Origin: a virus
Taxonomy: Duplodnaviria; Caudoviricetes
Reading direction: 5' to 3' (one strand)
Length of the DNA: 64,000 nucleotides
Virus record (IMG/VR): IMGVR_UViG_3300019742_000001
Part shown: in pieces, positions 12,520 to 58,977 of the stretch
How the letters are laid out: the number at the start of each line of letters is the position of its first letter
Position numbering within the stretch: position 1 is the first letter of the stretch
The notes under the pieces: model-generated
Databases searched by the model: none
Seen by the model: the letters and a program-made list of their open reading frames with translations, nothing else
Told to the model about the DNA's origin: nothing
Program-made: the position numbers and the translations under genes

Positions 12520-12780
12520 CTATTTTTCTGAAATACCTCTACGGCCTAATTCTTGTTTAACAATTTTATTCTGAAGCATTTTTCTACCAGTACCAAAACC
12601 ACTTTCTTCACTCCAAGATTTCAAAACTTCATCACTTAGACCACGAATTTGATCTCTAATTTCAATAGGTGTTCTGCCGTCTGCATCCAAAAACCAATCA
12701 AACTTTTTAACTGCGGCGGCAATCTTTTTCATAGCACCTTCACTTACAAGATATTTTTCTACAATCATATCAATTTTCAT
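12520..12780 (-). CDS. Hypothetical protein, loose CTS-like leader (..KYLVSE)
   Basis: Coupled ORF in the late operon. Confidence 0.6.
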   Translation of the reverse strand: MKIDMIVEKYLVSEGAMKKIAAAVKKFDWFLDADGRTPIEIRDQIRGLSDEVLKSWSEESGFGTGRKMLQNKIVKQELGRRGISEK

Positions 12781-13289
12781 TATACTAATCCCCCTTTACC
12801 ATTTGATTTTTCCATGTTATACTCATCTGGATTTTGTTTCTTCCACATCATCCAACCTTTCACATACTTACCACTAACCAATAATACCCAAAACAATGAA
12901 TATACAATAGTCTTTTTCATATCCATATCTTGGTCCTTGAATAGTTTATCAATTTCTAACCAGACTGACAACGCAGGATAAAAAGCAAGTGTGGGAAATG
13001 CTTCTGATTTAACAACATCCCACCAATGACCAATATCCTCATTCAGAGATTCATCTGATTCTCTAATCTTTTGTTTCTGGATCTCTTTCATCGTTCTATA
13101 CTTTGTACCAAACCCTTTGTTGATCAGAGTAAGAACTTCATCTTCCAGACCAAGTGTAATAACTTGATCAACAAATCCACTAAATTCTTGTTGTAGATAT
13201 GATTTAGTTTTTCGTATATCCATTCTCTTTAAGAGTAACTTGGCACTGTCAACCATGTTCTCATTAAGAAGATAATTATCAAATTTCAT
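12780..13289 (-). CDS. CTS-leader protein (MKFDNYLLNE) with C-terminal hydrophobic helices
   Basis: ATG 13289 with AAGGAG SD and TATAAATA at 13318. Hydrophobic segments FPTLAFYPALSVWL and TIVYSLFWVLLVSG. Confidence 0.65.
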   Translation of the reverse strand: MKFDNYLLNENMVDSAKLLLKRMDIRKTKSYLQQEFSGFVDQVITLGLEDEVLTLINKGFGTKYRTMKEIQKQKIRESDESLNEDIGHWWDVVKSEAFPTLAFYPALSVWLEIDKLFKDQDMDMKKTIVYSLFWVLLVSGKYVKGWMMWKKQNPDEYNMEKSNGKGGLV

Positions 13290-13379
13290 TATATTCTCCT
13301 TTGTACCATTCAATTAGTATTTATAAAAACATAAATACATTATATACAGTAATACTAACAAAAGGAGAATTTTTATAAT

Positions 13380-13847
13380 ATGGCAACTTTAGAGAAAAAT
13401 GGATACTCATATACAGGTTACACAGAACCTTTCTTTACACCTGATACCATCACATCTGGTGATGTTTTGGCAAAGATAGGTGGTTATGATACTATGTCCA
13501 TCACTGGTGCAGTAGATATCAGTTTAACAGAGTTTAGAAATGCTGGTTTGTTCGTGAGATTTGATACATCATTAACAGGAACAACACATACATCTGGGGA
13601 TATCAACTTTGACACTAATAAAGGTGGTGACATCTGGGTTATTGAAGTTGACGGTACACAAGTAACTGTATCTGATGTTCAATATGATAATGTGAATGGT
13701 GTATACAATGTTGAATTGAGTGGATCGGTTACTGTTGTTGCAACCAAACCTTATATGGTTGTTGGTCGTGTAGTTGATGTTGGTGATATTACTGCATCAA
13801 GAGATTATGCTATCGGTGAAAAAGTGTTAGAACAATACCCAGCTTAA
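13380..13847 (+). CDS. Putative virion structural/decoration protein
   Basis: Beta-rich and acidic, with strong SD and CATAAATA upstream. Confidence 0.4.
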   Translation: MATLEKNGYSYTGYTEPFFTPDTITSGDVLAKIGGYDTMSITGAVDISLTEFRNAGLFVRFDTSLTGTTHTSGDINFDTNKGGDIWVIEVDGTQVTVSDVQYDNVNGVYNVELSGSVTVVATKPYMVVGRVVDVGDITASRDYAIGEKVLEQYPA

Positions 13848-13862
13848 CAAGGAATTAAACTT

Positions 13863-14546
13863 ATGAGATTTGAAAAATACATAACAGAAATGGCAGATAA
13901 ACAGTATGGTGCTGGTATAACTTTTATAGATATCGACGAAACCGTGTTTAGAACATTCGCCAAAATCTTAGTTGTAAAGAATGGTAAGACTGTTAGAGAA
14001 TTAGACAATCAAGAATTCAATTCTTATGTCCTTAAAGATGGGGAAGATTACAACTTTGATCAATTCAGAGATGCAGAACTGTTCAACAAATCATCTATAC
14101 CTATCCCTCAAACTGTGGGTAGGATTACTAAGATGTTGGCTCAAATAAAAGCCAATGAACGGAATAGTAAGATTGTGTTCCTTACAGCAAGAGGATCTTT
14201 TGATGACAAGAAAACCTTTCTATCTACTTTTGAAAAGTATGGTATACGAATGGATAGACCAGACGTATATGTTGAAAGAGTTGGTGATATAAAATTAGGG
14301 ACAGTAGACGCAAAAAAGAAAAAGGTTATGCTGGATTATATTTCAACTGGTAAATATCGTCGTGTTCGTTTGTTGGATGATCACCTACCAAATCTTAAAG
14401 CACTAAAAGATATTGAAAACAAACTACCAAAAAATATTGAAAAGAAGGTTGTTGATACATACGATTTAGATGGTGGTGGCAAACTTCCAGTTATAAGTTT
14501 CTATGCATTACATGTACAACCTGATGGTTCACTGAAAAGAGTATAA
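13863..14546 (+). CDS. HAD-superfamily phosphatase with CTS-like leader
   Basis: FIDIDET (motif I), FLTARG (II), K (III), LLDD (IV). It begins MRFEKYITE. Confidence 0.75.
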   Translation: MRFEKYITEMADKQYGAGITFIDIDETVFRTFAKILVVKNGKTVRELDNQEFNSYVLKDGEDYNFDQFRDAELFNKSSIPIPQTVGRITKMLAQIKANERNSKIVFLTARGSFDDKKTFLSTFEKYGIRMDRPDVYVERVGDIKLGTVDAKKKKVMLDYISTGKYRRVRLLDDHLPNLKALKDIENKLPKNIEKKVVDTYDLDGGGKLPVISFYALHVQPDGSLKRV

Positions 14547-18554: not shown

Positions 18555-18598
18555 TAATAACCCTTCTGTTTTTTATAAATAAGACAGAAGGGTTATTA
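18555..18598. terminator. 15-bp perfect inverted repeat whose loop holds a TATAAATA late promoter
   Basis: taataacccttctgt (18555-18569) / acagaagggttatta (18584-18598). Confidence 0.7.
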
Positions 18599-18615: not shown

Positions 18616-19176
18616 ATGAGATTCGAACAATACTTAAATGAGGAATCAACCAATGTTCTTGGTTATGTTTTTCTTTCAAATGAATTAAATGAAGTGGTGA
18701 GTGATAGTTTTTTATTTAAATTACAAGCTCTTGGTCAAAAGATGGGTTTGAAAGTGAGAAAGTCACGAACATTTCAACAACAACTATCTAATGCTGGTAG
18801 TGGTGTACTTGACCTTATGAAAATCGTATTTGAATATTCTGTTCACGCAGATATATTTGATACTTCTGCTCGTAAAAAATTAGAACAAGAAATAAAAGAT
18901 AAGTATTCAAAGGTCAGAAAGGAAGATGTAATTTCCTTCATCGTTAATATAGACAAAACCTTTCTCGGTATCACATCAATACCAAGACATATTCTACAGA
19001 ATATCCTCGGTATCACAATTACATCATATGACAATTGGCAAACAAACAATGATTATGTATCTCTAAATATGGAGAAAATAATAATGGTACTGGATGACAT
19101 GAAAGACGAAGAAAATGCGATATTGGCAAGAAAAATTTACACTAATGTTACTGGTAAAACATATAAGAGGTCATAA
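18616..19176 (+). CDS. CTS-leader helical protein (MRFEQYLNE), paralog of 14557
   Basis: Leader plus shared motifs. Confidence 0.65.
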   Translation: MRFEQYLNEESTNVLGYVFLSNELNEVVSDSFLFKLQALGQKMGLKVRKSRTFQQQLSNAGSGVLDLMKIVFEYSVHADIFDTSARKKLEQEIKDKYSKVRKEDVISFIVNIDKTFLGITSIPRHILQNILGITITSYDNWQTNNDYVSLNMEKIIMVLDDMKDEENAILARKIYTNVTGKTYKRS

Positions 19177-20096
19177 TGAAATTACAACAATACTTAACAG
19201 AAAAACAAATAATTGTAGGAAAGGGTCAGAAATACGGACAGATTGTATTTCTAGCTGGTGGTGCCGCATCTGGTAAAGGATTCGCATCAACAAATTTTAT
19301 GGAAACCGACAAATTCAAAATTCGTGACGTTGACGAAATGAAAAAAGCCATGATTAAATTACAGAAAGTTAAGGGAGATAATCCAGAAATCGCCAATGCT
19401 GATATGGGGAAACCAGAAGATGTTCGTATGGTACACGAATTCTGTAAAAAACATAAAATCAAAGACAAAACACTTGATCTAGTATTAAATGGTGCGATAA
19501 AAGGAACTTTACCAAACATATTATTTGATGTTACTCTTAAAGATATTGGTGATATAAATGAAGTAGTACCTAAATTATTTGAAGCTGGTTACAAACCTAT
19601 TGATATTCATTTGGTTTGGATATTAACTGACTATACCATTGCAATAAAACAAAACACTGAACGTGAACGTGTAGTACCACCTGATATTATGTTAGCAACT
19701 CATACTGGTGCAGCTCTCACTGTCACTGATATCCTAAGACACAAAACAGGAAGTATTGGTACGACTATCGACGGATCTATCAATATTATCCTGAATAACA
19801 AAGAAAATACTGTGTATCTTACGGCTAATGACACCAAAGAAACTATGACAGGTAAAAATAAATTAATACAACAACCCGGAAAACCACTCCAAAGTGTCAG
19901 TAAATATGGTGGTAATAAATCATTAATAATTAAAAGTTTCAAATATATTAATGTAAAGGAAGAAGGTAAACCTATGAAACGAAGTGTGGATTTTGAGAAA
20001 GAATTGAATTCATGGGATGACCTAAGAAAATGGGTTAAATCTAATATACCAAAAACCAAGAAAACTGAAAATATAAGAAGAAGAAAACGGATATAA
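19176..20096 (+). CDS. P-loop NTPase/kinase (zeta-toxin/AAA_33-like) with CTS leader
   Basis: IVFLAGGAASGKG Walker A, ILFDVT, N.ER.R. It begins MKLQQYLTE. Confidence 0.65.
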   Translation: MKLQQYLTEKQIIVGKGQKYGQIVFLAGGAASGKGFASTNFMETDKFKIRDVDEMKKAMIKLQKVKGDNPEIANADMGKPEDVRMVHEFCKKHKIKDKTLDLVLNGAIKGTLPNILFDVTLKDIGDINEVVPKLFEAGYKPIDIHLVWILTDYTIAIKQNTERERVVPPDIMLATHTGAALTVTDILRHKTGSIGTTIDGSINIILNNKENTVYLTANDTKETMTGKNKLIQQPGKPLQSVSKYGGNKSLIIKSFKYINVKEEGKPMKRSVDFEKELNSWDDLRKWVKSNIPKTKKTENIRRRKRI

Positions 20097-43835: not shown

Positions 43836-43837
43836 AG

Positions 43838-44855: not shown

Positions 44856-44858
44856 AAG

Positions 44859-45251: not shown

Positions 45252-45253
45252 AG

Positions 45254-45580: not shown

Positions 45581-45582
45581 AG

Positions 45583-45858: not shown

Positions 45859-45860
45859 AG

Positions 45861-46456: not shown

Positions 46457-46458
46457 AA

Positions 46459-46758
46459 TTATACCTCAAATAGTGAGTCATCTAATATATTGGGAGTTGA
46501 AGTGACAATGAAACCACGATCTGATTCATCTGCACTGTAACCCATTAAAATATCAGTACCATTTTGTAATCGTATACCGTAAATTAACTTTCCTGTATCA
46601 GATCCAGAAATAACACCAATTTCTCCGTTCTTGGTGGTTAAATTAGATATGTAATTGGTAAGATTCAGTTTATCAGCCATTAATTGGTAAGTGGTATATT
46701 GTCTGCCATTGTTGGTGATTTTGACACTATCACCAATTTGTGGGAAATTTGTATTCAT
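46459..46758 (-). CDS. Array family D protein
   Basis: RGFIVTSTPNILDDSLFEV. Confidence 0.7.
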   Translation of the reverse strand: MNTNFPQIGDSVKITNNGRQYTTYQLMADKLNLTNYISNLTTKNGEIGVISGSDTGKLIYGIRLQNGTDILMGYSADESDRGFIVTSTPNILDDSLFEV

Positions 46759-46760
46759 AA

Positions 46761-47015
46761 TTATACCTTACCCTTTGCCATAGATTTGAAACCTTCACTA
46801 ATTAATTTCATCCGTGATGGTGTGTAATTACTGCAACCGAAGTCGTGATTAATACTTGATGGGTGTGTTTCAACTCTATCCATCAATGTAATTTTTTCAC
46901 CTTCTACTGGGCAATGAGTGATTTTGGTTTGTTGGTGATTACATTTAACAAGTTTACTGTCAAACATATTCCGACTTAACCATTTACAATCTTTACAAAA
47001 TATTTTTGGTTCCAT
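46761..47015 (-). CDS. Cys-containing small protein, first gene of the array operon
   Basis: CKDCKW...C...N....C. It ends KGKV but keeps the AGGTATAA junction. Confidence 0.65.
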   Translation of the reverse strand: MEPKIFCKDCKWLSRNMFDSKLVKCNHQQTKITHCPVEGEKITLMDRVETHPSSINHDFGCSNYTPSRMKLISEGFKSMAKGKV

Positions 47016-47070
47016 AGATGTGCCTTTCTATTTGGTTATGGATAGATATTACAGTAGGTGGTATGATGAG

Positions 47071-47325
47071 TCAAGAGTTAAATGTATATGTATCAGGTAG
47101 TTGATCAGTGATGGGTTGGTCATCTTTGTAATGCCATAGTAATTGGAATCCTTCTGAGGTTAGAAAAATCCCCTCCAAGACGATAATACCAGCATGTGTT
47201 AATTTATGGCAATTTGGACATAGGAGGCAGATATTCGATTTAGAATTATCGCCCCCTTTTGACCTACTCTGTATGTGGTGTTTGTCCAATAGTGCTGGAG
47301 TGTTGCATATTTGACAAGGTTTCAT
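47071..47325 (-). CDS. Small HNH endonuclease
   Basis: CQIC...KHHIQSRSKGG.N..SNICLLCPNCHKLTH. Confidence 0.88.
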   Translation of the reverse strand: MKPCQICNTPALLDKHHIQSRSKGGDNSKSNICLLCPNCHKLTHAGIIVLEGIFLTSEGFQLLWHYKDDQPITDQLPDTYTFNS

Positions 47326-47360
47326 TAAGATATTATAGTATGTGTGTCACTTAATGTCAA

Positions 47361-48170
47361 TTACTCGTTAATCATTTCGTCTAATAGTTTTGTTTTAACC
47401 ACACTGGTATAGATATCATATCCAACAAGTATAGAGTTACCATCTGTCCAACATTCTCTATCATCATTCTTTGGTAATGCACCACCAGCAACGATTAGCT
47501 TGAATTTATAAGGTTTGAGTATTTCGTTCAACATTTCGGAACATGATTTATCGTGATCAACCATATATGTCAACAATTGATTTGATGTTTTATTAAAGAA
47601 TTCTATTCTGGCATCACTATTCATATTTGCCCACATTTCATCGATACGCATAACAGAATCTCTAAGAGTATTCCAATCTTTGGCAATGTATTTCTTTTCA
47701 CCTATGAGTCTATTATATAGTTCAGACAGTTCATAGTTAACATCAGCAATAGTGGTATAATATCCTTTGAAACTATCCCAGAAATCACTAGCAGGGCATA
47801 ATCCAATAGAAGAATTATCATAAGGTAGTACAAGGTATCGTTCATCCATAGTGCCATATGCCCCATCAAGACTACTTGAGCATATAAGTGATTGACTTCT
47901 TTTAGGAAATTTAGACCATTGTTTTGAGTTATCTATCCATAGAGTATAATGATTATCAGTATTTGCTGATTTTCTATTGAATTTGGATGGTTCAACATAA
48001 CCGAAGTCACTACGAATAGACACATGACCTCTAAATAGACCTTGTTTATCTTCTGTGAATCGTCTCCATGCTTTACGACAGTTTTTCTTGATGATTTGTG
48101 CTGCTTCATCCATGTTAACGACTTTGGTTCTACCTTCTTTTGATTCTGATATAAACGATTGTAATCTCAT
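47361..48170 (-). CDS. ADP-ribosyltransferase-like protein (subfamily 2) with CTS leader
   Basis: MRLQSFISE; LFRG, RKSANTDNHYTL, SLICSS, RECW; TATAAATA at 48201. Confidence 0.55.
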   Translation of the reverse strand: MRLQSFISESKEGRTKVVNMDEAAQIIKKNCRKAWRRFTEDKQGLFRGHVSIRSDFGYVEPSKFNRKSANTDNHYTLWIDNSKQWSKFPKRSQSLICSSSLDGAYGTMDERYLVLPYDNSSIGLCPASDFWDSFKGYYTTIADVNYELSELYNRLIGEKKYIAKDWNTLRDSVMRIDEMWANMNSDARIEFFNKTSNQLLTYMVDHDKSCSEMLNEILKPYKFKLIVAGGALPKNDDRECWTDGNSILVGYDIYTSVVKTKLLDEMINE

Positions 48171-48256
48171 TGAATAATATTCTCCTGTGTGGTATACTAT
48201 TATTTATATTTACAGTGATAATTTATGGTGTTATATTATAGGAAAAGGGGGTATAT

Positions 48257-48535
48257 ATGTCGTTCAAAGAGGGTGATAGTGTTAGGTTACTTCTGTGTAA
48301 AGATATGAATGTATCTTTACGTACTGAGTGGGCTGAGTGGTGGAAGAAAAACAAAAATACAGTATTCACTTTATCGGAATATCGGACAAATGGTAATTGG
48401 TTTATGAAATATCCTAATGGTGATACTGTGTATAATCTACGTGGTGGTGGTGATGACCCAATAACATTTAATCATACAGAGATATATGTATGTAATCCAC
48501 CTATTAAATGGGAAGAGGATTTATTTGAGATATGA
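48257..48535 (+). CDS. KOW-like protein with DxLF tail
   Basis: MSFKEGDSVRL, ends WEEDLFEI. Confidence 0.65.
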   Translation: MSFKEGDSVRLLLCKDMNVSLRTEWAEWWKKNKNTVFTLSEYRTNGNWFMKYPNGDTVYNLRGGGDDPITFNHTEIYVCNPPIKWEEDLFEI

Positions 48536-48888
48536 TTAAATATTATGCACTAAATGATGATAATATAGCAGTTGAGTGTAATATGGAGTATGCACTACTT
48601 TGTGGTACAGAGGATCTTGTTAGTAATATCATTCAACAAACAGATGTTAGTGATGGTTTGATGGTATCAACAATATTCTTGGGAATGGATCATTGTTTTG
48701 GTGGTAGTGAATCAACACCTTTGTTGTTTGAGACAATGTTGATGGGTAACACAGAAGAGGAAGAAGTATGTGTTAGATATGAAACATATGTTCAAGCAGT
48801 GGAAGGTCATTGGAATATGGTCAAAAGATATGGTGGTTCAAAACCAGTGTCGTTACCATTGTTAGATGATAATCTGTTTATCTTATAG
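48532..48888 (+). CDS. Conserved phage protein with DxLF tail
   Basis: VSTIFLGMDH..LLFETM..RYETY..A.EGH, ends LLDDNLFIL. Confidence 0.65.
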   Translation: MIKYYALNDDNIAVECNMEYALLCGTEDLVSNIIQQTDVSDGLMVSTIFLGMDHCFGGSESTPLLFETMLMGNTEEEEVCVRYETYVQAVEGHWNMVKRYGGSKPVSLPLLDDNLFIL

Positions 48889-49143
48889 GGTGAACAGATC
48901 ATCTTTGAAATGATTTGGTTGGTATTCACATAGATCAGTACAGTCATCTTTATCTAAGAATTGGTTTACCACATCCCATGTCATTTTATGTGTAATATTA
49001 TCATCTAATGAGACAAACTCAATATGTTGTCGTATACAATCATTCATTACGCACACCCATATAATGGGATCGTTAACTTCTGCCGAGTCAATCTCAATAT
49101 ATTGTTGTCCTCTAATAAAGTCTTTTGCCTTAGTCATTTTCAT
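48883..49143 (-). CDS. Hypothetical protein with DxLF tail
   Basis: Ends HFKDDLFTL, tail-to-tail with 48532. Confidence 0.6.
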   Translation of the reverse strand: MKMTKAKDFIRGQQYIEIDSAEVNDPIIWVCVMNDCIRQHIEFVSLDDNITHKMTWDVVNQFLDKDDCTDLCEYQPNHFKDDLFTL

Positions 49144-49544
49144 GATGGATTCGTAATCATTGAATATAGAGTTAGTTTCTTGGTTAGTTTTATTCCCATC
49201 TTATTAAGAAGAATAGACCATATAATAGAAGAAATTGAAATTACATTACTTGACCATACATATACAACAGGAAGACCAATGCCATAAATTGATACTGACA
49301 AAATGAGTAATATGATTAATATAGCAACAACCATAACATTGAGATACCAAGTAGCAGAGAAGTTCAATACTTTCACTAAGTCACGATGAACAGTAAGTTC
49401 TTGTTCTCGTTCATATATCAGTTGTCTAGGCACATCTTGTCTTATCTTTGACAACACTCGTGCGGCATCAGTATAATCATTATCCATACCATGTAGAAAT
49501 ATTTTTTCACATTCTTTCATCATTTTTCTTTCGGATCTTGTCAT
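49140..49544 (-). CDS. Membrane protein
   Basis: Two C-terminal TM segments, TTGACA promoter near 49605. Confidence 0.6.
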   Translation of the reverse strand: MTRSERKMMKECEKIFLHGMDNDYTDAARVLSKIRQDVPRQLIYEREQELTVHRDLVKVLNFSATWYLNVMVVAILIILLILSVSIYGIGLPVVYVWSSNVISISSIIWSILLNKMGIKLTKKLTLYSMITNPS

Positions 49545-49647
49545 TCGTATATCCCTTTCCAGATTTTAGTTAAGATGATAGTATCATAGGTGTAAGTGAG
49601 TGTCAAATATTATAAATATAACTGAAACCAAAATATATGGAGAATAT

Positions 49648-50631
49648 ATGAGATTTGAAGATTTACTATTGAATGAGAAGGCAATGACACCGAAACAGGC
49701 TATCAAGTTTGCTACTGATACTGATTATAATAATATATCAAGTGCGTCAGAGAAAGAGTTCATTGAGACATGGAAAATGATAACCAAGGAGTGTAAAGGT
49801 TTCATTCGTGAATTGAGGAAAGGTGATCAATTATTGTTTAGAGGTATGAAAAACATAGACAATATGGGTAGCAGAGTACCGAGGAAGAATCGTAGACCTT
49901 TGGATACACCAACCGCAGTAAGTGACAAAGCCGATGAAATAATATTAGAGTTATTTGGATGGAAACCGAGACAAGAGGGTTTATTCACAACAGGAAATAC
50001 ATTGTTTGCTGGTGGGTATGGTGATATTTGCATGGTCTTTCCGGTAGACAAGTATGATATACTATGGAGTTCAAAGACAACTGATGCATATTCCAAATTA
50101 AGAGATAGGTCAATTGGTGATTACATTAGGAAGAACTACACAAAAGAATTGAAGACAATGTATGATAAAAAATTTGCTGAGGGACATGAGGGTGTGTATC
50201 GGATAAGAGATAAAGGATATAATGTACCACTCCAAAAGAAATATAGGATTAAAAAAGCTGCAATCAAGTATTATGTTGATTATATTAAACAAAGTAACTT
50301 GATTCAAGGGGATGTAGAAGAGTTCGTAAAAGATAATATATATTGGGACCCAGAGAGGTCATTTGATGGTTTCCTTAATTGGGTAAGACATGGGTATTTT
50401 CTTGATGAAGGTAGGAAGTCGTGGCCAGAAGGATTTGATAAATTATTCAGTGATGCTGTTGAGAAGATGGTAATTGATGAACTTGATTATAATGATAAAG
50501 ATTTAAGAAAGGCGATACAATCAGGTAATGAGATTCAAGTAAAGTGTGACAAATACTATTACATTGGACTGGAATGTATGCCATTAGTTGAATTATGTTT
50601 ATGGGGTAAGACGATAAGGAGTGAAATTTAA
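49648..50631 (+). CDS. ADP-ribosyltransferase-like protein (subfamily 1) with CTS leader
   Basis: Start MRFEDLLLNE (GGAG SD, TATAAATA 49611); LLFRG, GLFTTG...GYG, NEIQVKC. Confidence 0.55.
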   Translation: MRFEDLLLNEKAMTPKQAIKFATDTDYNNISSASEKEFIETWKMITKECKGFIRELRKGDQLLFRGMKNIDNMGSRVPRKNRRPLDTPTAVSDKADEIILELFGWKPRQEGLFTTGNTLFAGGYGDICMVFPVDKYDILWSSKTTDAYSKLRDRSIGDYIRKNYTKELKTMYDKKFAEGHEGVYRIRDKGYNVPLQKKYRIKKAAIKYYVDYIKQSNLIQGDVEEFVKDNIYWDPERSFDGFLNWVRHGYFLDEGRKSWPEGFDKLFSDAVEKMVIDELDYNDKDLRKAIQSGNEIQVKCDKYYYIGLECMPLVELCLWGKTIRSEI

Positions 50632-51281
50632 TGAGATTACAACAATACATAACAGAAGGTGTTAGTGTAAAATATGATGACATATATGATATAATACCAC
50701 TAATAAAACGTGATTGTAAGAAGTGGATTAATGAAAGTAACGGACAGTTTGCGTTTAGAGGTATGAAAAACAAACCATTATTTATTAAACATGACGTAAG
50801 GAAAAACAGAAAACCAAAAGATACATCAAAGTCCCAACATGAATTGATGGATAACGTGATGAATGACAAATTTGGATGGCATCCTCGTTCTGAGGGTTTG
50901 TTTTGTTCGGGTGATATGATGTCAACAACTGATTATGGTGTTCCATACATGATATTTCCTATAGGTGATTATAGATATGTATGGAACCCAAAAGTTAAAG
51001 ATAGTTTTCTTGATACTTCTAACTTTTCATCATGGTGGGTCCAATTACTGAGTATTGCTATCGAAGATAAATTCTTAAATAAATTTATTATGGAAAAATC
51101 AACTAAAAAAATGTTGAAGGGGTACATTGATACTGGATTAAGTAACGCATTAAGACGAGATAATGAGGTAATGGTCGAATGTAAAGAGTATTATGCTATA
51201 CGAGCAGAATCCATACATAGTGTATATAATGATGACGCTCCATATGCATCATTCACAGACTTTTTGGTGGATATATCATGA
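50631..51281 (+). CDS. ADP-ribosyltransferase-like protein (subfamily 1) with CTS leader
   Basis: MRLQQYITE; AFRG, GLFCSG...YG, NEVMVEC. Confidence 0.55.
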   Translation: MRLQQYITEGVSVKYDDIYDIIPLIKRDCKKWINESNGQFAFRGMKNKPLFIKHDVRKNRKPKDTSKSQHELMDNVMNDKFGWHPRSEGLFCSGDMMSTTDYGVPYMIFPIGDYRYVWNPKVKDSFLDTSNFSSWWVQLLSIAIEDKFLNKFIMEKSTKKMLKGYIDTGLSNALRRDNEVMVECKEYYAIRAESIHSVYNDDAPYASFTDFLVDIS

Positions 51282-51874
51282 GATTACAACAATACATAAC
51301 AGAGAAGGCATCAAAGAACACCATTGTATGTGATGTTCAACCAATGTATGAACAATATCAGTCATTTGAGACATATGAGTTCACTGAATTCCTTAATACT
51401 CAAACTAAACAAGTTATGTATTATTTCAATGGACCTGATACTGTTGGTACTGATACAGAGAGTGATATCAAATACTGGTTGATTGAGAATGGATTGAATG
51501 AGGAAAAACTCAATGATATCACATTCTTTGATAAGGGGTATGCATATTTCCGATCATTTATGGATGAAGGTATATCCGAACATACAATAATCAAGATGAT
51601 TAGATATATGTTCAAGACAAGACAATGGGATTCACGTGATATAGAAAATGAAGAGTGGGAGAAGGCATTGGGTAGTGACTATGATAGTGATGTTGAACAT
51701 ATGTTAGACAGTGGTGATATGATTTATCCACCTGATATTGATATTCGTCAACTAAGGCAACACGGTGGAGGGTATATCGTAGGTGGTGGTAAGAGAGAAT
51801 GTTTGGCAGAACTTCAATTATTGATGTCTGCGTTTAATATAAAAGCAAGAGAAATTAAAAGATATGTATATTAG
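51278..51874 (+). CDS. CTS-leader protein, possible isochorismatase/cysteine-hydrolase fold
   Basis: MRLQQYITE; TIVCDVQP, DKGY, YIVGGGKRECL. Confidence 0.4.
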   Translation: MRLQQYITEKASKNTIVCDVQPMYEQYQSFETYEFTEFLNTQTKQVMYYFNGPDTVGTDTESDIKYWLIENGLNEEKLNDITFFDKGYAYFRSFMDEGISEHTIIKMIRYMFKTRQWDSRDIENEEWEKALGSDYDSDVEHMLDSGDMIYPPDIDIRQLRQHGGGYIVGGGKRECLAELQLLMSAFNIKAREIKRYVY

Positions 51875-51883
51875 GAGATTATA

Positions 51884-52600
51884 ATGGTAAATTTAAAAGG
51901 TGCTTATGTTACAAAAGATGTGAAATTGGATAGATTACCCGATTTCGATGAAAGAAGTAAAAACTTTCCTATCAGAGAGTTGTCTGGTTCAAAGAAACAA
52001 CGGTCATACACTTGGCGTTGTAATGAACAATTAGATCAAGGACCAGATGGTGCATGTGTTGGGTTTGGTGTTGCACATGAGTTAATCGCAAGACCAGCAG
52101 AAGTTAAAGGTATCACTGACACTTATGCAAAACAGAATATCTATTGGGAAGCACAGAAGATTGATCCTTGGGATGGTGGTAGTTATCCCGGTGCATCACC
52201 ATTTTATGAAGGAACAAGTGTTCTTGCTGGTGTTAAAGTAGTTCATAAAATGGGTTGGATTGATTCATATCGTTGGGCATTTGGATTGGAAGACTTGATT
52301 CTTGGTGTTGGTCATAATGGTCCAGCCGTTATTGGTGTTGGATGGCACGGCAACATGTTTCAACCTGATTCAGATGGTTACATTCACGCATCAGGTGGTA
52401 TCTATGGTGGTCACTGTGTATTAGTAAATGCAGTTAATGTTAAGAAACAACGATTTACTATTCATAACTCATGGGGTAAATCATGGGGTATGAATGGTGA
52501 GTGTTATATTTCATTTGAAGATATGGGTAAACTATTGGCAGATCGGGGAGAAGCAGTATTCTTCTTAAAACGTCATAACAAAAAACAACCACAAATATAA
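51884..52600 (+). CDS. Papain-like (C1) cysteine peptidase
   Basis: LDQG..GACVGF (Q/C), GGHCVL (H), HNSWG.SWGMNG (N). Confidence 0.88.
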   Translation: MVNLKGAYVTKDVKLDRLPDFDERSKNFPIRELSGSKKQRSYTWRCNEQLDQGPDGACVGFGVAHELIARPAEVKGITDTYAKQNIYWEAQKIDPWDGGSYPGASPFYEGTSVLAGVKVVHKMGWIDSYRWAFGLEDLILGVGHNGPAVIGVGWHGNMFQPDSDGYIHASGGIYGGHCVLVNAVNVKKQRFTIHNSWGKSWGMNGECYISFEDMGKLLADRGEAVFFLKRHNKKQPQI

Positions 52601-52623
52601 TTAAAGTATGGAGGAATAATAGT

Positions 52624-53520
52624 ATGAGATTGGATCATTTTTTGGTGGAAGGTAGATCAAAATCACTAAAATTACAACAATTCAGAGATGAACTTGGTAG
52701 TGGGAAATATTCCGATGTATTAAAGTATTATAAAAGTTTGGATGATCCCACATCAGGGTTTATATACAGAGGTAATCGGTCATCCGATACATTGGCTGTT
52801 GTAGACCCTAAGACATCAACTAGGACTAGTCAAAACACAGATAATTATTACACTCTTTTTATTGATAATGATCCATCGTGGTCTAAATTCCCTAAAAGGA
52901 GTAAGTCACTAATCTGTACAACTGATTACTCAAAATCAATATTATATGGTAATGGTTATGTAATGTTCCCTGTTAACGGATCGGATATAGGAATTTGTCC
53001 AAAGGGAGATATATGGGGTAGTTTTAAGGGGTTAGAGTCTAGTGGGGGTAATGATGGGTTTTTGGCATTACTTTTTGAGTCATTTAACGATATGTTTACT
53101 GTTATTAACAAAAGCGGGGAGATAAAAGAATGTTTTAATGAAGATTTTTCTATAGAGTCTCTTGTGAATAGTATGCTTAGCAGATCTAAGCCAACTAAAC
53201 ATAAAACTTATGATGATGACATTGGAACATTTAAGAAACAACTGAAATATCTCGACCAACACATCAAAAAGAACGGACCAGATATATATTTGGGGTATCT
53301 ACCTCTGATTGATAAGTTGTTTAATACATTTTACAAAGGTGATATGTATAAGTGTATATCTGATATACTTGATCCCAAAAGAAGTGGGTTTAAGTTACAA
53401 AAGGTTGGCAAAAAACTACCAACCAATGGACATGAAGTATGGACTGATGGTAAATGTTTAATGATGGATGTTCATCTTTTTGGTCAATTACATGATTCAG
53501 GTGAATTGTATGATTTGTAA
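52624..53520 (+). CDS. ADP-ribosyltransferase-like protein (subfamily 2) with CTS leader
   Basis: MRLDHFLVE; IYRG, RTSQNTDNYYTL, SLICTT...YG, HEVW. Confidence 0.55.
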   Translation: MRLDHFLVEGRSKSLKLQQFRDELGSGKYSDVLKYYKSLDDPTSGFIYRGNRSSDTLAVVDPKTSTRTSQNTDNYYTLFIDNDPSWSKFPKRSKSLICTTDYSKSILYGNGYVMFPVNGSDIGICPKGDIWGSFKGLESSGGNDGFLALLFESFNDMFTVINKSGEIKECFNEDFSIESLVNSMLSRSKPTKHKTYDDDIGTFKKQLKYLDQHIKKNGPDIYLGYLPLIDKLFNTFYKGDMYKCISDILDPKRSGFKLQKVGKKLPTNGHEVWTDGKCLMMDVHLFGQLHDSGELYDL

Positions 53521-53547
53521 AGAAATCACTAAAGAGGGTGGAAGTAT

Positions 53548-54387
53548 ATGAAATTACAGAGATATTTAATAGAAGGTCGTACCCAGAGTCTACCAAAAGA
53601 TGAATTCGAAAAACTGTTGAGAACTGACTATAGAGATTCTGTTATGTCAGTAATCAATGGAAAAGGGATGTTGTTTCGTGGTAACAAAGATACTCCACAA
53701 TATGGATATGTTGATACTTCAAAGGGGAAACTTAGACGATCTGCAAATACAAGTAATGAATATACACTGTGTATTGATAATTCGTCAAGGTGGAAGAATT
53801 ACCCTCGACGTGGTAGATCATTAATATGTTCCACCAGTTTATTATATGCTATTAATTATGGTCATCTTAATATTGTATTACCTATCAATGGATCATCTAT
53901 AGGTATATGTTCTGATGACGATTTTTGGTATAGTTTCCCATATATAGAGAAAGTGTTGCATATTAGAGATATGGATTCATTCAATAGTGAATTCAGGGAT
54001 CTATTACGTTGGGGTACAGGTAATAGAACCAATGATAAAAATTGGGCACAACTTAGATCGGCAATGAAAGAATTTGATAAGAAATTTGAGAATTATAATT
54101 ATGACTGGGACAATGTGTTTTCTGAAATATATTCGGGGATTAATTATACAAAATCTGCTTCTGCATGGGATGACGCATGGAAGGGTAGTTTACAAAAAAC
54201 TATCAATGATATAATAGATCCTGTAAATAATGAATTCAAGTTAGTCAATATTGGTGACCAGTTTGATGATGATTGTGAAGCATGGTTTAGTGGTAAATCA
54301 CTTGTTATCAATACTAACTATTTTGGTGACAAAGGTGAATATGAAAAAACATTGAATTATTTGATGTCAGTTATGGAGGGACATTAG
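53548..54387 (+). CDS. ADP-ribosyltransferase-like protein (subfamily 2) with CTS leader
   Basis: MKLQRYLIE; LFRG, RRSANTSNEYTL, SLICSTS..A.NYG, CEAW. Confidence 0.55.
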   Translation: MKLQRYLIEGRTQSLPKDEFEKLLRTDYRDSVMSVINGKGMLFRGNKDTPQYGYVDTSKGKLRRSANTSNEYTLCIDNSSRWKNYPRRGRSLICSTSLLYAINYGHLNIVLPINGSSIGICSDDDFWYSFPYIEKVLHIRDMDSFNSEFRDLLRWGTGNRTNDKNWAQLRSAMKEFDKKFENYNYDWDNVFSEIYSGINYTKSASAWDDAWKGSLQKTINDIIDPVNNEFKLVNIGDQFDDDCEAWFSGKSLVINTNYFGDKGEYEKTLNYLMSVMEGH

Positions 54388-54391
54388 GTTT

Positions 54392-54973
54392 ATGAAATTA
54401 CAGAGATATATAAATGAAATGGGGTTTGATGAGGAACAGGATTTATGGCAAAAAGAGATCTTGCCCAAACTTGAAAAGGATTGTAAACCATTCCTCAAAG
54501 AAAAGACATTACTTTATAGAGGTTTTGGTAGAAGATTTGATTTCGAATTTATCATACCTCGTAAGGATAGAAGACCATTGGATAGCCCACAGTGGTTCCA
54601 TGATGGTTTCGATAATGCATCTAAAAAAGTGTTTGGTTGGAAGTCGAGATCAGAGGGAGTCTTTGCATCATCTACATATTCAACAGCTAGTGCTTATGCT
54701 GGTAGTGGTACAGTGGCAATGGTATTCCCTAAAGGTAAATTCAAGTATATCTGGTCATCAAAGATCAATGATTTATTTGATGAACTCAATGATGAAGATT
54801 TCTCAATATTTGATGATGAAACTGCGTGGGTTCAATTCGTAAAACAGAACTACCAAGATAATAATTTAAGATCGGTTCGCAACGAAAACACAGAGATTAT
54901 GTTGTATTGTCCTAATGGATATTACGCGGTGGATGTGGCGTTTGATGAGGCTGTAAAAAAGGTGTTATTATGA
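54392..54973 (+). CDS. ADP-ribosyltransferase-like protein (subfamily 1) with CTS leader
   Basis: MKLQRYINE; LLYRG, GVFASS...ASAYA, TEIMLYC. Confidence 0.55.
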   Translation: MKLQRYINEMGFDEEQDLWQKEILPKLEKDCKPFLKEKTLLYRGFGRRFDFEFIIPRKDRRPLDSPQWFHDGFDNASKKVFGWKSRSEGVFASSTYSTASAYAGSGTVAMVFPKGKFKYIWSSKINDLFDELNDEDFSIFDDETAWVQFVKQNYQDNNLRSVRNENTEIMLYCPNGYYAVDVAFDEAVKKVLL

Positions 54974-55710
54974 GATTAGAATCGTATATAGATAGTAGTG
55001 ATATAACATATGAACAGTATGTATCAGGTATTGACTCATATTTCTCAGTGGATGAGGGTTTCAAAGAGGTCAAGGATAAGTCGGTTGCATTTGTTAAGAG
55101 ACAATTGAAGATGGCATCAGATGAATTTGATAAGATATCACATGAACTAGGGTTGTCATTGATTCAGATATCACATGCATTAACGGAAAAGAATGTGTTC
55201 AAGTTACTGAAATCAATAGGGTTTTCTTTCGTGAAACTTTTATCATCATTAAATGGATTATCAGGTATAGTTCGTCAAGGTCTGTTTGATGCATTTGAAG
55301 AATTATCCAAAACACAACTATGGATGAAGTTCAAGTCTGGTGTTGCTGCATGGGATGATATACTTGACCGATATCCAGTGATGAAAAAAGTAACTGGTGT
55401 GTTAGTCGCAGGTCTTTTGTTTTTCATGTGGACACAAATGACATTCATTGGAAATCTTGACTATGATTTTGATTTCACCTCAATTGCGTTGGCATTGAAA
55501 GGGAAATACTCACTGGAACAAATATTTGGTGGTCCTGAAGGTGCAATGTTATTGACACTGTTCGCTAGTGGATCATTAATTAGTGTTGCTTGGTTGGGTG
55601 AAACTGTATACAACCTGATCTTGGCATTGGTTTACACAGGTTCCAAGAAATTGTCAACTGTTGACCATAAGGTGGTTAACATAATCAAATCAAAAATGGT
55701 ATTCGAATGA
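54970..55710 (+). CDS. CTS-like-leader protein with hydrophobic helical C-terminal half
   Basis: MRLESYIDS; TM-like VTGVLVAGLLFFMW, AMLLTLFASGSLISVAW, VYNLILALVY. Confidence 0.6.
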   Translation: MRLESYIDSSDITYEQYVSGIDSYFSVDEGFKEVKDKSVAFVKRQLKMASDEFDKISHELGLSLIQISHALTEKNVFKLLKSIGFSFVKLLSSLNGLSGIVRQGLFDAFEELSKTQLWMKFKSGVAAWDDILDRYPVMKKVTGVLVAGLLFFMWTQMTFIGNLDYDFDFTSIALALKGKYSLEQIFGGPEGAMLLTLFASGSLISVAWLGETVYNLILALVYTGSKKLSTVDHKVVNIIKSKMVFE

Positions 55711-56543
55711 GATTAGAACAGTATATTATCAACGAGAGTTCAAGATCAAAACCTTTGGACAAAGAAACGTTCGAAGAATTGTTGAGAACTGATTATAGTG
55801 ATGCTGCTAAGGCATTAGTCAAAAATGCCAGTAGTAGATTGTATCGTGGTAACTATGATCTTGCAAGATATGCCTTAACCGACCCTACCAAGGGAAGGTT
55901 ACGGAGATCATCTAACACATCAAATGAGTATACTCTGTTTATGGATAACAACAAGATATGGAATGAGTATCCTAATCGTGGTCGTTCCATTATATGTTCA
56001 ACCGATATGTTATCATCAGAACAGTATGGTGATAATGGGTTGGTTATCCCAATGAATGGCACACTACTTGGTCAATGTAATGAGTTTGATTTGTGGTCAT
56101 CATTCAAAGTATTGGAGAAATCACTTGATGTCGAGGATATGGATGATTTTAATCACACGTTACGTTTTCTAATTGGTGTAGGAAATGATACTAATTGGCG
56201 TACGTTACGTAAATCATTTACAACATTTGACAAGAAGCTAAAAGAGGGTGGTTGGGAATCGATATACAATGATATCATTACCAAGACTAAATATCAAAAG
56301 GAATATGCTCGTGAACTGGTTAGTAGGTGGGAGAAAATATGGAAGGGTTCTATGATGAAGACAATGGAATATCTATTAGATCCAAAGACTAACAAGTTTA
56401 AATTAAAGAAATCAGGTGACAAATTTGAACCAAATCGTGAGGTATGGGTTGGCGGTAAGGCGTTATATGTATCACTTGATTATCTTGACGCTACATCGGG
56501 TGATAAACACACAATCGATTATATAAAGAGGGTTATATCATGA
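55707..56543 (+). CDS. ADP-ribosyltransferase-like protein (subfamily 2) with CTS leader
   Basis: MRLEQYIINE; LYRG, RRSSNTSNEYTL, SIICST...YG, REVW. Confidence 0.55.
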   Translation: MRLEQYIINESSRSKPLDKETFEELLRTDYSDAAKALVKNASSRLYRGNYDLARYALTDPTKGRLRRSSNTSNEYTLFMDNNKIWNEYPNRGRSIICSTDMLSSEQYGDNGLVIPMNGTLLGQCNEFDLWSSFKVLEKSLDVEDMDDFNHTLRFLIGVGNDTNWRTLRKSFTTFDKKLKEGGWESIYNDIITKTKYQKEYARELVSRWEKIWKGSMMKTMEYLLDPKTNKFKLKKSGDKFEPNREVWVGGKALYVSLDYLDATSGDKHTIDYIKRVIS

Positions 56544-56986
56544 AATTATGTCAATACTTAATAGAATCCAATAGATTGAAGGTATACTTCGCACATCCAC
56601 GGGCAACGTATGGTAAACCAGAGGAAACAAAATGTATTAAAATGATAACTGACAAATTCCCTGAACATATCATTGTCACACCTAATAACAGTAATATCAT
56701 AGATCGTGCCAATAAGATGGGGTTTGATATATTCTTTGGGATTATTAATACAACACAGATAATGTGTGTTATGCCATTCAAAGATGGGATCATAGGTAAT
56801 GGCGCGTATCGTGAGTGTGAACATGCTAGTAAGAAGGGGATACCGATATTTGTTGTAAATCCTTGGAATAATACTATTACTGTAACACCATTTCATAAGT
56901 TGAAGGGTATCAGTCCAGAAGAAACGTTTGGTCGTATTGACAAAAAAGATCAACATAAATGGAAGGTACATGAGACAAGTGTATAA
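56540..56986 (+). CDS. Nucleoside 2-deoxyribosyltransferase/TIR-like Rossmann protein with CTS leader
   Basis: MKLCQYLIE; KVYFAHP...IG.GAY.E.E.A.KKGIPIF. Confidence 0.55.
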   Translation: MKLCQYLIESNRLKVYFAHPRATYGKPEETKCIKMITDKFPEHIIVTPNNSNIIDRANKMGFDIFFGIINTTQIMCVMPFKDGIIGNGAYRECEHASKKGIPIFVVNPWNNTITVTPFHKLKGISPEETFGRIDKKDQHKWKVHETSV

Positions 56987-57029
56987 ATAGTTAAAGATCA
57001 AATAAAATTTAATTTATGTGGAGAAATAT

Positions 57030-58466
57030 ATGAAGAACATGTTTGAACAAATTGAAAGGGCACAATCAGCAGTAGATCGTGTTGATGAAAGTGGTATTAA
57101 GAATATTAGAATGTGGGCAAAAAAGTATAAAGAAGCCGAAGGTTATTATCATATGGATACAGATGGTGTTACATCAGCTATCGCAATGAAAGCCTATCTT
57201 GAGGCGTATGGTATTAAAACAGTGGCAGTTCATAAGATTAACTATGGTTCCAATGAGTTCTCGGCAGTTAAGGCAAAGAAAGGTCGTTTGGTGTGGATGG
57301 TTGACTTTGCACACGGTAAACCTTTCCTTCATATTCATACTGATCATCATGACGCACAAACAGGTGATGCAGAAACTACTTCAACCGCATTTGAGAAAGC
57401 TCCTTCTAACGTACAAGCAATCAGTCAGAAGATTAGTCCAAGAGATTTATTCTCTGCGGAAGACATCAAGGTTATTTCGATGGTTGATACTGCCGACTTC
57501 GCTAAGAATGATATCACACCTGATCAAGTAATGAACGCAGCATTCGGATATGACAAAACATTGAATGTTGACCGTAATCACACTATGATGGGATTGGTTG
57601 TTAACAAACTCTTATTGGCATACAAGAATAAGAAAGGTTTCCTTGATAAATTGGTGTTACAAGCAAAACCTTCATTAATCAGCCTGTATACTGTTATCAA
57701 GAAAGTGGCAAAAGAAGAAAATTATAAGACACCAGCAGAAGTTGGTAGTGGTGTTGAAAACTACGTATCAGCACAGAAAGGTAAGATCATTGAACCAGAT
57801 ATTGATCCTAGTAAACTTAAAGGTGGACAGTCTACAATGTGGGGTTCAACTATCGTACAATACGGTGGTGGTGGTATGTTCAATGGTTATGACCGTTATA
57901 CACCATTCAAGAATAATCCAACAGCAGACTATTTGATCATTGCATGGCCTATGGGATTGGTTCAAGCATCAAAGAATCCATTCAAAGGTGGTAGTAATCC
58001 TCATCCATTAGGTGATTTGGCTATCAAGAAATTGTTAGGTAACAGTAAATGGAAGTCACGTCTAAGTAAAGTGAATGTATCGTTAGCTGAGATCAAGAGA
58101 ATCTTTGAAATGGATATCAAACCAGCAGATCGTGATGCTATGGGATTCAATTTTGAAGACTTTGCTTCGTTGGTTACCAAAGATCAAGTTAAAGGTATGG
58201 ATATAGAGGGTAATAGTGGTTACACTGGATTCATTAAATCACTGGCTAACGTAAAATTCAGTCAGTTGTCATACAAACAGAAACAAAACTTAGAGAAAGT
58301 CACTGTATCTGTATATGACATCATGGTTGCACAGTCTGGTGGTCATAGAGATATCACAAATGTTCAAGGTTTTAATTTTTTGGGTAAAGGATATGTTGAT
58401 ATAATGAAGGAGTTTATGAAAGATCTTGCTCTTGAGTTGAAAGACAAACGATTGGAGAAAAAATAA
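57030..58466 (+). CDS. DHH-family phosphoesterase
   Basis: HMDTDG, VDFAH, TDHHD, VDTADF, SGGH; TATAAATA at 56982. Confidence 0.75.
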   Translation: MKNMFEQIERAQSAVDRVDESGIKNIRMWAKKYKEAEGYYHMDTDGVTSAIAMKAYLEAYGIKTVAVHKINYGSNEFSAVKAKKGRLVWMVDFAHGKPFLHIHTDHHDAQTGDAETTSTAFEKAPSNVQAISQKISPRDLFSAEDIKVISMVDTADFAKNDITPDQVMNAAFGYDKTLNVDRNHTMMGLVVNKLLLAYKNKKGFLDKLVLQAKPSLISLYTVIKKVAKEENYKTPAEVGSGVENYVSAQKGKIIEPDIDPSKLKGGQSTMWGSTIVQYGGGGMFNGYDRYTPFKNNPTADYLIIAWPMGLVQASKNPFKGGSNPHPLGDLAIKKLLGNSKWKSRLSKVNVSLAEIKRIFEMDIKPADRDAMGFNFEDFASLVTKDQVKGMDIEGNSGYTGFIKSLANVKFSQLSYKQKQNLEKVTVSVYDIMVAQSGGHRDITNVQGFNFLGKGYVDIMKEFMKDLALELKDKRLEKK

Positions 58467-58977
58467 TGAGTAGATTAAGTGATTTATTAGAGTCTAACAA
58501 CAATCGTGGTAATGACAGACTTGATCCAGATGAATTAGCTGATCAAATAGGTGGATATTTTGAAGATGTTATGTTCAATCTTGAATCTATTAGTGAGTTG
58601 CCTGTTGTACCACCTAAATTGAAGACTCGTTTACGTAAAATATACAAAGATGTCTTGAACATCAAAGGTGATTTAGACAAGGAGTTATAATGGATTTACT
58701 ACAGAAGATTGACATATATATCAACGAAATGATTGAAGTTGAAGTGAATGGGTTAAGAAATGGTAAGAATATACTATTCACAGTAGGTAGACATAATCTT
58801 AGGGTATTTGTTGATAAGGTACAATTCAGTATTGCAACAAAATCTGTCACTAAAGAGAAATTCCTTTCGTCAAGTGATGGTAGGGCTGTCCATAGGGCAT
58901 ACATTAAGAACAAACAAGAGAACAGTGATTACTTTAATAATAAGAATCTTAATATACAAAAAATTATAAGGGCTTAA
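58466..58977 (+). other. Two small late ORFs (58466-58690 MSRLSDLLES; 58690-58977 MDLLQKIDIYINE)
   Basis: Coupled ORFs with leader motifs. Confidence 0.6.

Follow-up and report, generated by a model that had tools for sequence, protein, structure and literature searches.

In bacteriophage T4, a short N-terminal peptide of the capsid-targeting sequence (CTS) type is sufficient to package foreign proteins into the head; targeting is set mainly by residues 4 and 7 and processing by residues 8 and 10, and an Asp at position 10 stops processing but not targeting (PMC9026906). The T4 Alt protein, an ADP-ribosyltransferase (ART), is packaged, processed by gp21 and injected (PMC9026906, PMC5694885). 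Outside the T-even and phiKZ-like phages, no description of such a leader was found in the literature that we searched. Here, we analyzed a stretch of 64,000 nucleotides from a tailed phage (Caudoviricetes; IMG/VR record IMGVR_UViG_3300019742_000001), hereafter the window, in which a series of late genes open with a common leader of 9-10 residues. The leader is likely to be this phage's version of the T4 CTS. Because the same tag stands on at least 16 late proteins of about 10 unrelated kinds, this 239-kb T4-related jumbo phage probably carries a large set of enzymes in its head and delivers them together with the DNA. The initial annotation of the window had proposed a T4-like, protease-cleaved capsid-targeting leader marking a large protein set, and this proposal was supported by the head module of the phage, by the register of the leader, by CTSs on cargo homologues in T4-like phages and by the virion protein list of phage Atu_ph07.

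Genes of the window are named here by the position of their start codon, with a minus sign for the complementary strand (Table 1). Translation from the 17 coordinates of the initial annotation confirmed every start, and 13 late-gene starts fit the pattern M-[KR]-[LF]-x-x-[YFL]-[LI]-x(1-2)-E, namely 13289-, 13863, 18616, 19176, 48170-, 49648, 50631, 51278, 52624, 53548, 54392, 55707 and 56540. A Shine-Dalgarno sequence lies upstream of each of them, and the leader of 49648 has Leu at the aromatic position. When 1503 candidate starts (ATG, GTG or TTG, at least 40 aa, six frames of the window) were searched with the strict leader expression, 12 matched, all of them real gene starts, compared with 0.08 expected from amino-acid composition (P ~7e-23). 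A position-specific scoring matrix (PSSM) was trained on 121 N-termini of one cargo family's homologues from other phages, with the window proteins excluded, and placed the 13 claimed starts at ranks 1-13 of the 1503 with scores of 10.2-25.5; six of them (13289-, 13863, 18616, 19176, 51278 and 56540) have no detectable homology to the training family. Scores of 10 or more were found for 13 of the 37 late-block genes and for 0 of the 82 other genes of the window, where the maximum was 0.8 (Fisher P 4.6e-8). The leader is absent outside the late blocks, in line with the claim that the early small open reading frames (ORFs) are without it, and an equal frequency among early genes was not borne out. 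In the 40 kb upstream of the window, which contain fibre, sugar-cluster and head genes, no gene had a PSSM score of 10 or more, which argues that the leader is not a general feature of late genes.

In the proteins that carry it, the leader is the very N-terminal segment and ends before the core of the fold begins. In particular, 13863 has its HAD motif DIDET from residue 23 on, four residues separate the leader of 56540 from the first strand, and the AlphaFold2 (AF2) model of 53548 has a predicted local distance difference test score (pLDDT) below 50 at residues 1-8 and above 90 from residue 11. All 13 strong leaders end with Ile or Leu at P3 and Glu at P1 (counted back from the Glu), which is the gp21 cleavage pattern. 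The looser forms that had been listed beside them were of unequal quality. The start of 20098 is a genuine variant shifted by one residue (M-S-K-L-x-x-F-V-x-E), and the same shift was found in external homologues; 54970 has a leader without the Glu; 12780- and 58466 are weak. The 54970 product is predicted to be targeted yet uncleaved, because an Asp at position 10 of the T4 CTS blocks processing and not targeting. The 12780- gene has a paralogue about 31 kb past the window end that starts MSIDNVIERYLSE.

We compared the leader with T4 sequences taken from NC_000866, in which the internal proteins IPII and IPIII start MKTYQEFIAE, IPI starts MKTFKEFTSTTTPVSTITE (MKTFKEFTS…ITE), Alt starts MELITELFDE and gp24 starts MAKINELLRE. 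Upon alignment of the window leader M1-R-L-Q-Q-Y-I-T-E9 with the IPII/IPIII sequence K2-T-Y-Q-E-F-I-A-E10 on the Glu, the two patterns matched at the four determinant positions of T4, with Leu or Phe at P7, Tyr or Phe at P4 (Leu in 49648), Ile or Leu at P3 and Glu at P1. Additionally, a PSSM of the window type ranked IPII and IPIII second and third among 200 T4 ORFs.

To describe the cargo, we removed the leaders and compared the remaining sequences by BLAST. Two families were revealed, family A (20098, 49648, 50631 and 54392) and family B (48170-, 52624, 53548 and 55707), which are weakly linked to each other (E ~2e-4) and together make up eight paralogues of one ART-like superfamily. The remaining nine of the 17 leader proteins are singletons and mutually unrelated. 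The 17 proteins had been described as unrelated, which holds for these nine but not for the eight paralogues, and about 10 unrelated cargo types is nearer. Among the singletons, 19176 passes the Pfam Zeta_toxin cut-off with a score of 23 bits, 13863 combines HAD motif I (DIDET) with a weak Pfam match to a HAD phosphatase, and 56540 resembles clusters of DUF4406 and nucleoside deoxyribosyltransferase (NDT), both as a lead only. Hydrophobic C-terminal stretches are present in 54970 and perhaps in 13289-. A tblastn search of phages with 51278 gave no match, and the Atlas lead for 18616 was uninformative. The predicted cargo comprises the eight ART-like paralogues and two Zeta-toxin-like P-loop proteins, of which one is encoded in the window and the other beyond it. 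To these are added a HAD-like phosphatase, an NDT/DUF4406-like protein, membrane proteins (one or two) and several proteins of no assigned type.

The genome that contains the window encodes the machinery that such a leader would need. The proteins of the window recur on circularly permuted contigs of 239.3-239.7 kb. By walking upstream via identical proteins and contigs, from L014 (99.8% identical to the window) to L017 and then to L018 (100% identical to L017), we reached a T4-type head module about 20 kb before the window start, on L018; the L018 run also holds contig L002, which is 100% identical to window 46491-62971. The Pfam matches on L018 were all above cut-off: Portal_T4 with 314 bits, Gp23 with 358 bits, Peptidase_S77 (PF03420), a gp21-type prohead protease, with 90.1 bits (cut-off 27), and the gp22-type scaffold T4_CASP (PF25623) with 34.5 bits (cut-off 27). 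A 72-aa protein is listed between Portal_T4 and Peptidase_S77. The protease, encoded at 12416-13045 of L018, starts MKKGLLITE and the scaffold MDIEKVLE, comparable to MNEPQLLIE of T4 gp21 and MLKEQLIAE of gp22, and [LI]xE occurs at 16 sites of the 265-aa scaffold. In the other direction, the 37 kb walked beyond the window end revealed three further strong leader carriers (Table 1) and two leader variants, MSKLQNYLVSE and the MSIDNVIERYLSE start mentioned above, which brings the strong carriers to at least 16 in about 150 kb inspected of the 239-kb genome.

Late-promoter-like octamers accompany the leader genes throughout: an intergenic TATAAATA or CATAAATA ([TC]ATAAATA) stands upstream of each of them, and the same holds for the portal gene and other structural genes. 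This agrees with the claim that all carriers belong to operons headed by late promoters. The signal is in the placement and not in the frequency of the word. The TATAAATA octamer occurs 12 times in the window against 10 expected and is not over-represented, and 9 of the 12 copies are intergenic and stand 7-60 nt before the start of a co-oriented ORF.

Other phages show both the conservation of the leader and its change from one lineage to another. No close relative of the window or its operon was found by megablast among 50,697 phage records, and the IMG/VR scan found no relative. At the protein level, relatives of family B were present only in jumbo phages, namely Atu_ph07 (490 kb), RsoM2USA (344 kb), SCTP-2 and two metagenomic huge phages. 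With family B as the query, an exhaustive profile search retrieved 3988 representatives of metagenome clusters, defined at 50% identity, at E <=1e-3 and 3245 at E <=1e-10, and almost all of the best 150 matches align from residue 1. Within a family B set of 154, Arg or Lys is present at position 2 in 123 and an [LIVMF]xE ending at residue 9 or 10 in 116. Across 146 family B homologues from other phages, Glu9 and Arg11 are each 95% conserved, and the conservation of Glu9 is comparable to that of the putative catalytic residues R44, S91 and E244. Homologous cargo has the leader M[RK]WxxLxE in Atu_ph07 and the leaders MTFKAFLQE and MTTFKEYLTE in RsoM2USA. The leaders of Atu_ph07 are written in varied synonymous codons, which indicates that selection acts on the peptide.

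The Zeta-like protein 19176 gave the most telling comparison, with homologues in 215 phage records, mostly Straboviridae. The Straboviridae homologues have a T4-style CTS before the aligned domain, such as MKSFKQFTESTLTE in Slopekvirus, MKSFKDFVSLDE in RB43 and MKMKFSEFVQLEE in an Aeromonas phage, so that this cargo wears the tag of whichever phage hosts it. The Zeta-toxin-like P-loop protein with a CTS-type N-terminus was located at 167095-167934 of Klebsiella phage PSKm4DII (L021) and as ORF241c of RB43 (L024). In T4-like phages its gene adjoins hoc and a HAD 5'-3' deoxyribonucleotidase and is mostly annotated as hypothetical, or as 'anti-RM protein dam3' in two records; the protein is probably an unrecognised internal head protein.

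Virion evidence was available from Atu_ph07. Its leader pattern matched 13 proteins in the genome (gp53-62, gp381, gp408 and gp482) and none in the reversed control; gp numbers were taken from the accession order and confirmed by exact molecular weight. All 13 tagged proteins are present in the virion list obtained by electrospray ionization tandem mass spectrometry, with 2-31 unique peptides each (PMC6102473 Table S5), and this list contains 131 of 714 predicted proteins (PMC6102473). The enrichment of tagged proteins in the virion corresponds to a hypergeometric P of 1.6e-10, or 0.006 when only three independent cargo types are counted. Neither gp381 nor gp47 is related to family A or B, so unrelated tagged cargo is virion-associated in Atu_ph07 too. 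Atu_ph07 and RsoM2USA both encode S77 proteases. The virion mass spectrometry of RsoM2USA covered 10 gel bands only and is silent on the leader proteins.

The assignment of families A and B as ART-like is plausible but unproven. The AF2 model of 53548 is confident (pLDDT 86). In an exhaustive VIA structural scan with this model, many of the top ~50 rows were ART-fold proteins, mixed with unrelated helical proteins; they included BC2332 (Z 5.8), Arr (Z 5.5), diphtheria toxin (Z 4.5), ExoA, cholix, PARPs, DarT, pertussis toxin and CteC, and every Z-score was 5.8 or lower, under the caution level of 8. A Foldseek search of the model against the PDB gave nothing better than E 0.08, and neither Pfam nor a hidden Markov model search of PDB sequences gave a match for families A and B. 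AFDB clusters offered no usable family for the ART-like cargo, and its hhalign comparison with T4 Alt had a probability of 0.2. In the 146 homologues of family B, R44 (98%), S91 (97%) and E244 (100%) are near-invariant residues of predicted strands and may form an R-S-E triad. What had been annotated as eight ART-like proteins thus stands as eight paralogues with weak fold matches and conserved R, S and E residues, and lacks a family match. About 8-11 kb past the window end (L027 8237-11352), we also observed an NAD+ salvage block with NAPRTase, NUDIX, NAD synthase and isochorismatase/nicotinamidase-like genes, which is suggestive in a phage with eight ART-like, putatively NAD-consuming proteins.

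As the initial annotation stated, 50631 and 51278 open with the same 26 nt, from which 19176 departs at two positions. We found that 50631 and 51278 agree at 26 of 27 positions in the leader and at 15 of 54, the random level, directly after codon 9, and that their upstream regions differ. Leader codons are strongly biased compared with gene bodies: AGA is used in 11/11 cases (43% in gene bodies), TTA in 14/20 (30%), ATA in 8/10 (39%) and TAC in 6/11 (23%), and the Lys codon is AAA in 6/6. This leader-specific codon preference can largely explain the identity, and the pattern is matched equally well by selection on the peptide plus a preference for certain codons at the 5' end and by short-patch recombination. 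A mobile DNA cassette was considered as the source of the identity and not adopted, as codon preference accounts for most of it and the flanks are unrelated; the portable DNA-encoded leader that the annotation had drawn from the 26 nt is accordingly not established.

By analogy with T4, we infer core binding, cleavage after the Glu, a location in the head interior and ejection. The late-made propeptide of 9-10 residues would bind the T4-type scaffolding core of the prohead through its hydrophobic P7 and aromatic P4 residues, and the attached protein would be enclosed as the Gp23 shell forms. The gp21-type prohead protease (Peptidase_S77) would then remove the leader after the conserved Glu, at [LI]-x-E, and the mature enzymes would stay with the packaged DNA in the head and be injected together with it.

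We weighed this packaging tag against other explanations of the leader. It is unlikely that the tag leads to the virion but not to the DNA-filled head interior, with its carriers being decoration, whisker, tail or baseplate accessories, or remaining uncleaved, and not acting as injected effectors. Atu_ph07 has hair-like fibres and many unexplained virion proteins that mass spectrometry records without location, and the first leader genes of the window adjoin fibre and baseplate genes; however, the structural tail and fibre genes of the genome are without the tag, the cargoes resemble soluble enzymes and not fibre proteins, and the gp21-type [LI]xE site of the leader lies at the same N-terminal distance as in head-core proteins of T4 and of this phage. 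Several cargoes are toxin-like (Zeta_toxin at 23 bits, ART-like fold matches), and the genome encodes ClpP, so the leader might instead be a protease-removable inhibitory or stabilising propeptide, acting by zymogen control or as a degron, that restrains toxic ARTs and Zeta-like kinases in the producing cell and has no packaging role. The 95% conservation of both Glu9 and Arg11 could reflect a processing site alone. We regard this as quite unlikely: nine disordered residues would hardly inhibit about 10 different folds, homologues with equivalent tags occur in virions, and the same kind of peptide suffices to package foreign proteins in T4.

It is very unlikely that the shared start is no protein signal at all and instead reflects inherited paralogy or an mRNA feature, such as a 5' coding region that is A-rich and unstructured to aid efficient late translation; under this reading, short-patch recombination might have spread it. 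Although 8 of the 17 leader proteins are paralogues, six strong leaders stand on proteins for which no homology was detected with the paralogue families or among themselves, and many late genes of the same operons have no leader. The strong codon bias (AGA 11/11, AAA 6/6, TTA 14/20) and the exact 26 nt between two adjacent genes would suit a nucleic-acid feature, but the identity ends at random level right after codon 9, the upstream regions differ, and it is the peptide and not the codons that is conserved across phages of differing GC content.

Several observations weigh against reading the leader as a CTS on packaged enzymes. The phage is uncultured and known from sequence alone. The Atu_ph07 preparation was purified with polyethylene glycol, its list includes likely contaminants (ribonucleotide reductase and a RecA-like protein), and its mass spectrometry reports presence in a virion preparation, not head location nor loss of the leader. 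A PSSM of the window type scores the T4 CTSs weakly (4.5) and the Atu_ph07 leaders at about 0.8, and the equivalence of the leaders hence rests on pattern and context, not on sequence homology. The A-rich leader codons could also serve translation initiation. Finally, the ART assignment is weak, with no Pfam match, Foldseek E values of 0.08 or above, a best Z-score of 5.8 and no similarity to T4 Alt.

If the leader functions in the same way as its T4 counterpart, the head would contain at least 16 different proteins, mostly enzymes, which is several times the T4 set. A puzzle of Atu_ph07 would also be explained: for the 29 virion proteins detected from coding sequences 31-76 of that phage, a structural role had been predicted in only two cases (PMC6102473), and 10 of the 29 carry the tag. 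We tentatively suggest, with somewhat less than even confidence, that the leader is a sequence-readable packaging tag with local dialects in a very large clade of mostly uncultured T4-superfamily jumbo phages, from which a whole injected proteome could be predicted; the ART-like family, with about 4000 clusters at 50% identity and nearly all members tagged, would then be among the largest classes of phage-delivered enzymes for host takeover or counter-defence. The corresponding rule for injected proteins in thousands of metagenomic jumbo phages would be an N-terminal leader ending in [LI]xE together with an S77 protease in the genome. The tag would point to this huge uncharacterised ART-like family as effectors of the first minute, and it may offer a second natural targeting peptide for loading foreign proteins into large capsids.

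Table 1. Leader genes, leader variants and late-promoter-like octamers of the window, with three strong carriers beyond its end.
Feature	Position	Strand	Leader or octamer	Further evidence
86-aa gene, loose longer leader variant	12520..12780	-	MKIDMIVEKYLVSE	translation, PSSM
Leader gene, 169 aa; singleton, hydrophobic C-terminal stretch	12780..13289	-	MKFDNYLLNE	PSSM 13.7
Divergent late-promoter-like pair	13318..13337	both	TATAAATA 13318-13325 (-), CATAAATA 13330-13337 (+)	
Leader gene, 227 aa; HAD-phosphatase-like	13863..14546	+	MRFEKYITE	PSSM 22.0; DIDET motif I; weak Pfam Acid_phosphat_B
Octamer, 42 nt before 18616 start	18574..18581	+	TATAAATA	
Leader gene, 186 aa; cargo of no assigned type	18616..19176	+	MRFEQYLNE	PSSM 25.5
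Leader gene, 306 aa; Zeta_toxin-like P-loop protein	19176..20096	+	MKLQQYLTE	
Family A paralogue, 336 aa; leader shifted by one residue	20098..21108	+	MSKLSKFVSE	
Family B (ART-like) paralogue, 269 aa	47361..48170	-	MRLQSFISE	TATAAATA at 48201-48208 (-)
Octamer, head of 49648-56986 operon	49611..49618	+	TATAAATA	
Family A paralogue, 327 aa	49648..50631	+	MRFEDLLLNE	PSSM 10.2
Family A paralogue, 216 aa	50631..51281	+	MRLQQYITE	
Leader gene, 198 aa; phage-only family	51278..51874	+	MRLQQYITE	Rossmann-like lead only
Family B paralogue, 298 aa	52624..53520	+	MRLDHFLVE	
Family B paralogue, 279 aa	53548..54387	+	MKLQRYLIE	model pLDDT 86
Family A paralogue, 193 aa	54392..54973	+	MKLQRYINE	
246-aa gene, leader without Glu; hydrophobic transmembrane-like C-terminal stretches	54970..55710	+	MRLESYIDS	PSSM 6.4
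Family B paralogue, 278 aa	55707..56543	+	MRLEQYIINE	PSSM 24.7
Leader gene, 148 aa; nucleoside deoxyribosyltransferase/DUF4406-like (lead only)	56540..56986	+	MKLCQYLIE	PSSM 12.2
74-aa gene, weak leader-like start; membership doubtful	58466..58690	+	MSRLSDLLE	PSSM -3.9
Strong carrier, 371 aa; between Dam-type methylase and Mom-like gene	beyond window		MRLGSYIKEE	CATAAATA ahead
Strong carrier, 239 aa; second Zeta_toxin/AAA_33-like protein	beyond window		MRLNDYILNE	
Strong carrier, 249 aa	beyond window		MKLKNILLE	

Other features were observed in the window and its surroundings. Two small proteins, at 12323-12508 (-) and 58690-58977 (+), share a different common N-terminus, MDLL[EQ]KIDIY; their genes each lie directly downstream of a small weak-leader gene (12780- and 58466) and may represent a second recurrent two-gene module. 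Early small-gene arrays, with products ending in …DLFEV (or …EDLFI/V), were found at 41618-46758 (-) and on the + strand near 28154-31841, 37784 and 48532; in these arrays, the stop codon lies inside a repeated junction, GATCTCTTTGAGGTATAAC, which provides the ribosome-binding site of the next gene. A giant baseplate-hub/fibre-like protein of 1866 aa is encoded at 2505-8105 (-), contains internal repeats of ~250 nt with ~90% identity, and measures 1785, 1849, 1853 or 1866 aa in near-identical strains. No tRNAs were found in the window. On L018 (17818-20414), the large terminase appears to be split into a Terminase_6N piece (281 aa) and a 360-aa C-terminal piece, parted by a 216-aa ORF with a GIY-YIG-like start (…YKITRSDGQLYIGTT); Atu_ph07 likewise has two terminase pieces. 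Upstream of the window, at 4907-19991 of L017, radical-SAM, SDR and PIG-L enzymes form a cluster that has FG-GAP fibre-like genes on one side and the portal gene on the other. ThiF (E1-like) and Prok-JAB genes (L029 73-1832) adjoin a late operon with four leader or leader-variant genes.

We compared the leader system of the window with the described systems. Like the T4 CTS, the leader lies at the extreme N-terminus (within 9-19 residues), with hydrophobic or aromatic residues at P7 and P4, Ile or Leu at P3 and Glu at P1, and is present on probably late, otherwise unrelated proteins in a genome with an S77 protease and a T4-type scaffold. The consensus is different, M[KR][LF]xx[YF][LI]xE here and MKTYQEFIAE in T4, and at least 16 strong carriers are present here, whereas T4 has three internal proteins (plus Alt). 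The cargo consists here of enzyme-like proteins of 150-370 aa, known from their genes, in contrast to the small basic proteins of T4. Alt itself is an enzyme of the ART type that travels in the head and is injected along with the DNA, and its N-terminal propeptide (MELITELFDE) likewise has Glu as the last residue; it is a single protein of 682 aa, whereas here eight paralogues of 190-340 aa fall into two subfamilies that have no detectable sequence relationship to Alt and whose ART activity is only predicted.

The phiKZ-like propeptides, as in phiKZ and SPN3US, are similar in that a gp21-related protease cuts after Glu, the packaged and ejected proteins are numerous, and the N-termini of paralogues are conserved (PMC5694885). 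They differ in their S/A/G-x-E motif, in propeptides that mostly exceed 100 residues and in the lack of a confirmed gp22-type scaffold (PMC5694885), whereas the leader here is 9-10 aa long with Ile or Leu at P3, as in T4, and a T4_CASP scaffold is present; the short leaders with Ile or Leu at P3 do not fit the phiKZ-type propeptide class. The polymorphic internal-protein loci of T-even phages also join a conserved targeting peptide to changing cargo, which has been read as an arms-race repertoire (PMC3012670; PMC9026906). In contrast to those loci, the system described here belongs to a distant 239-kb member of the Atu_ph07/RsoM2USA-like jumbo group, several late operons contribute to its cargo, and a single cargo family comprises about 4000 metagenome clusters. 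The proposed mechanism is one known from T4, and the scale, the cargo families and the clade are new.

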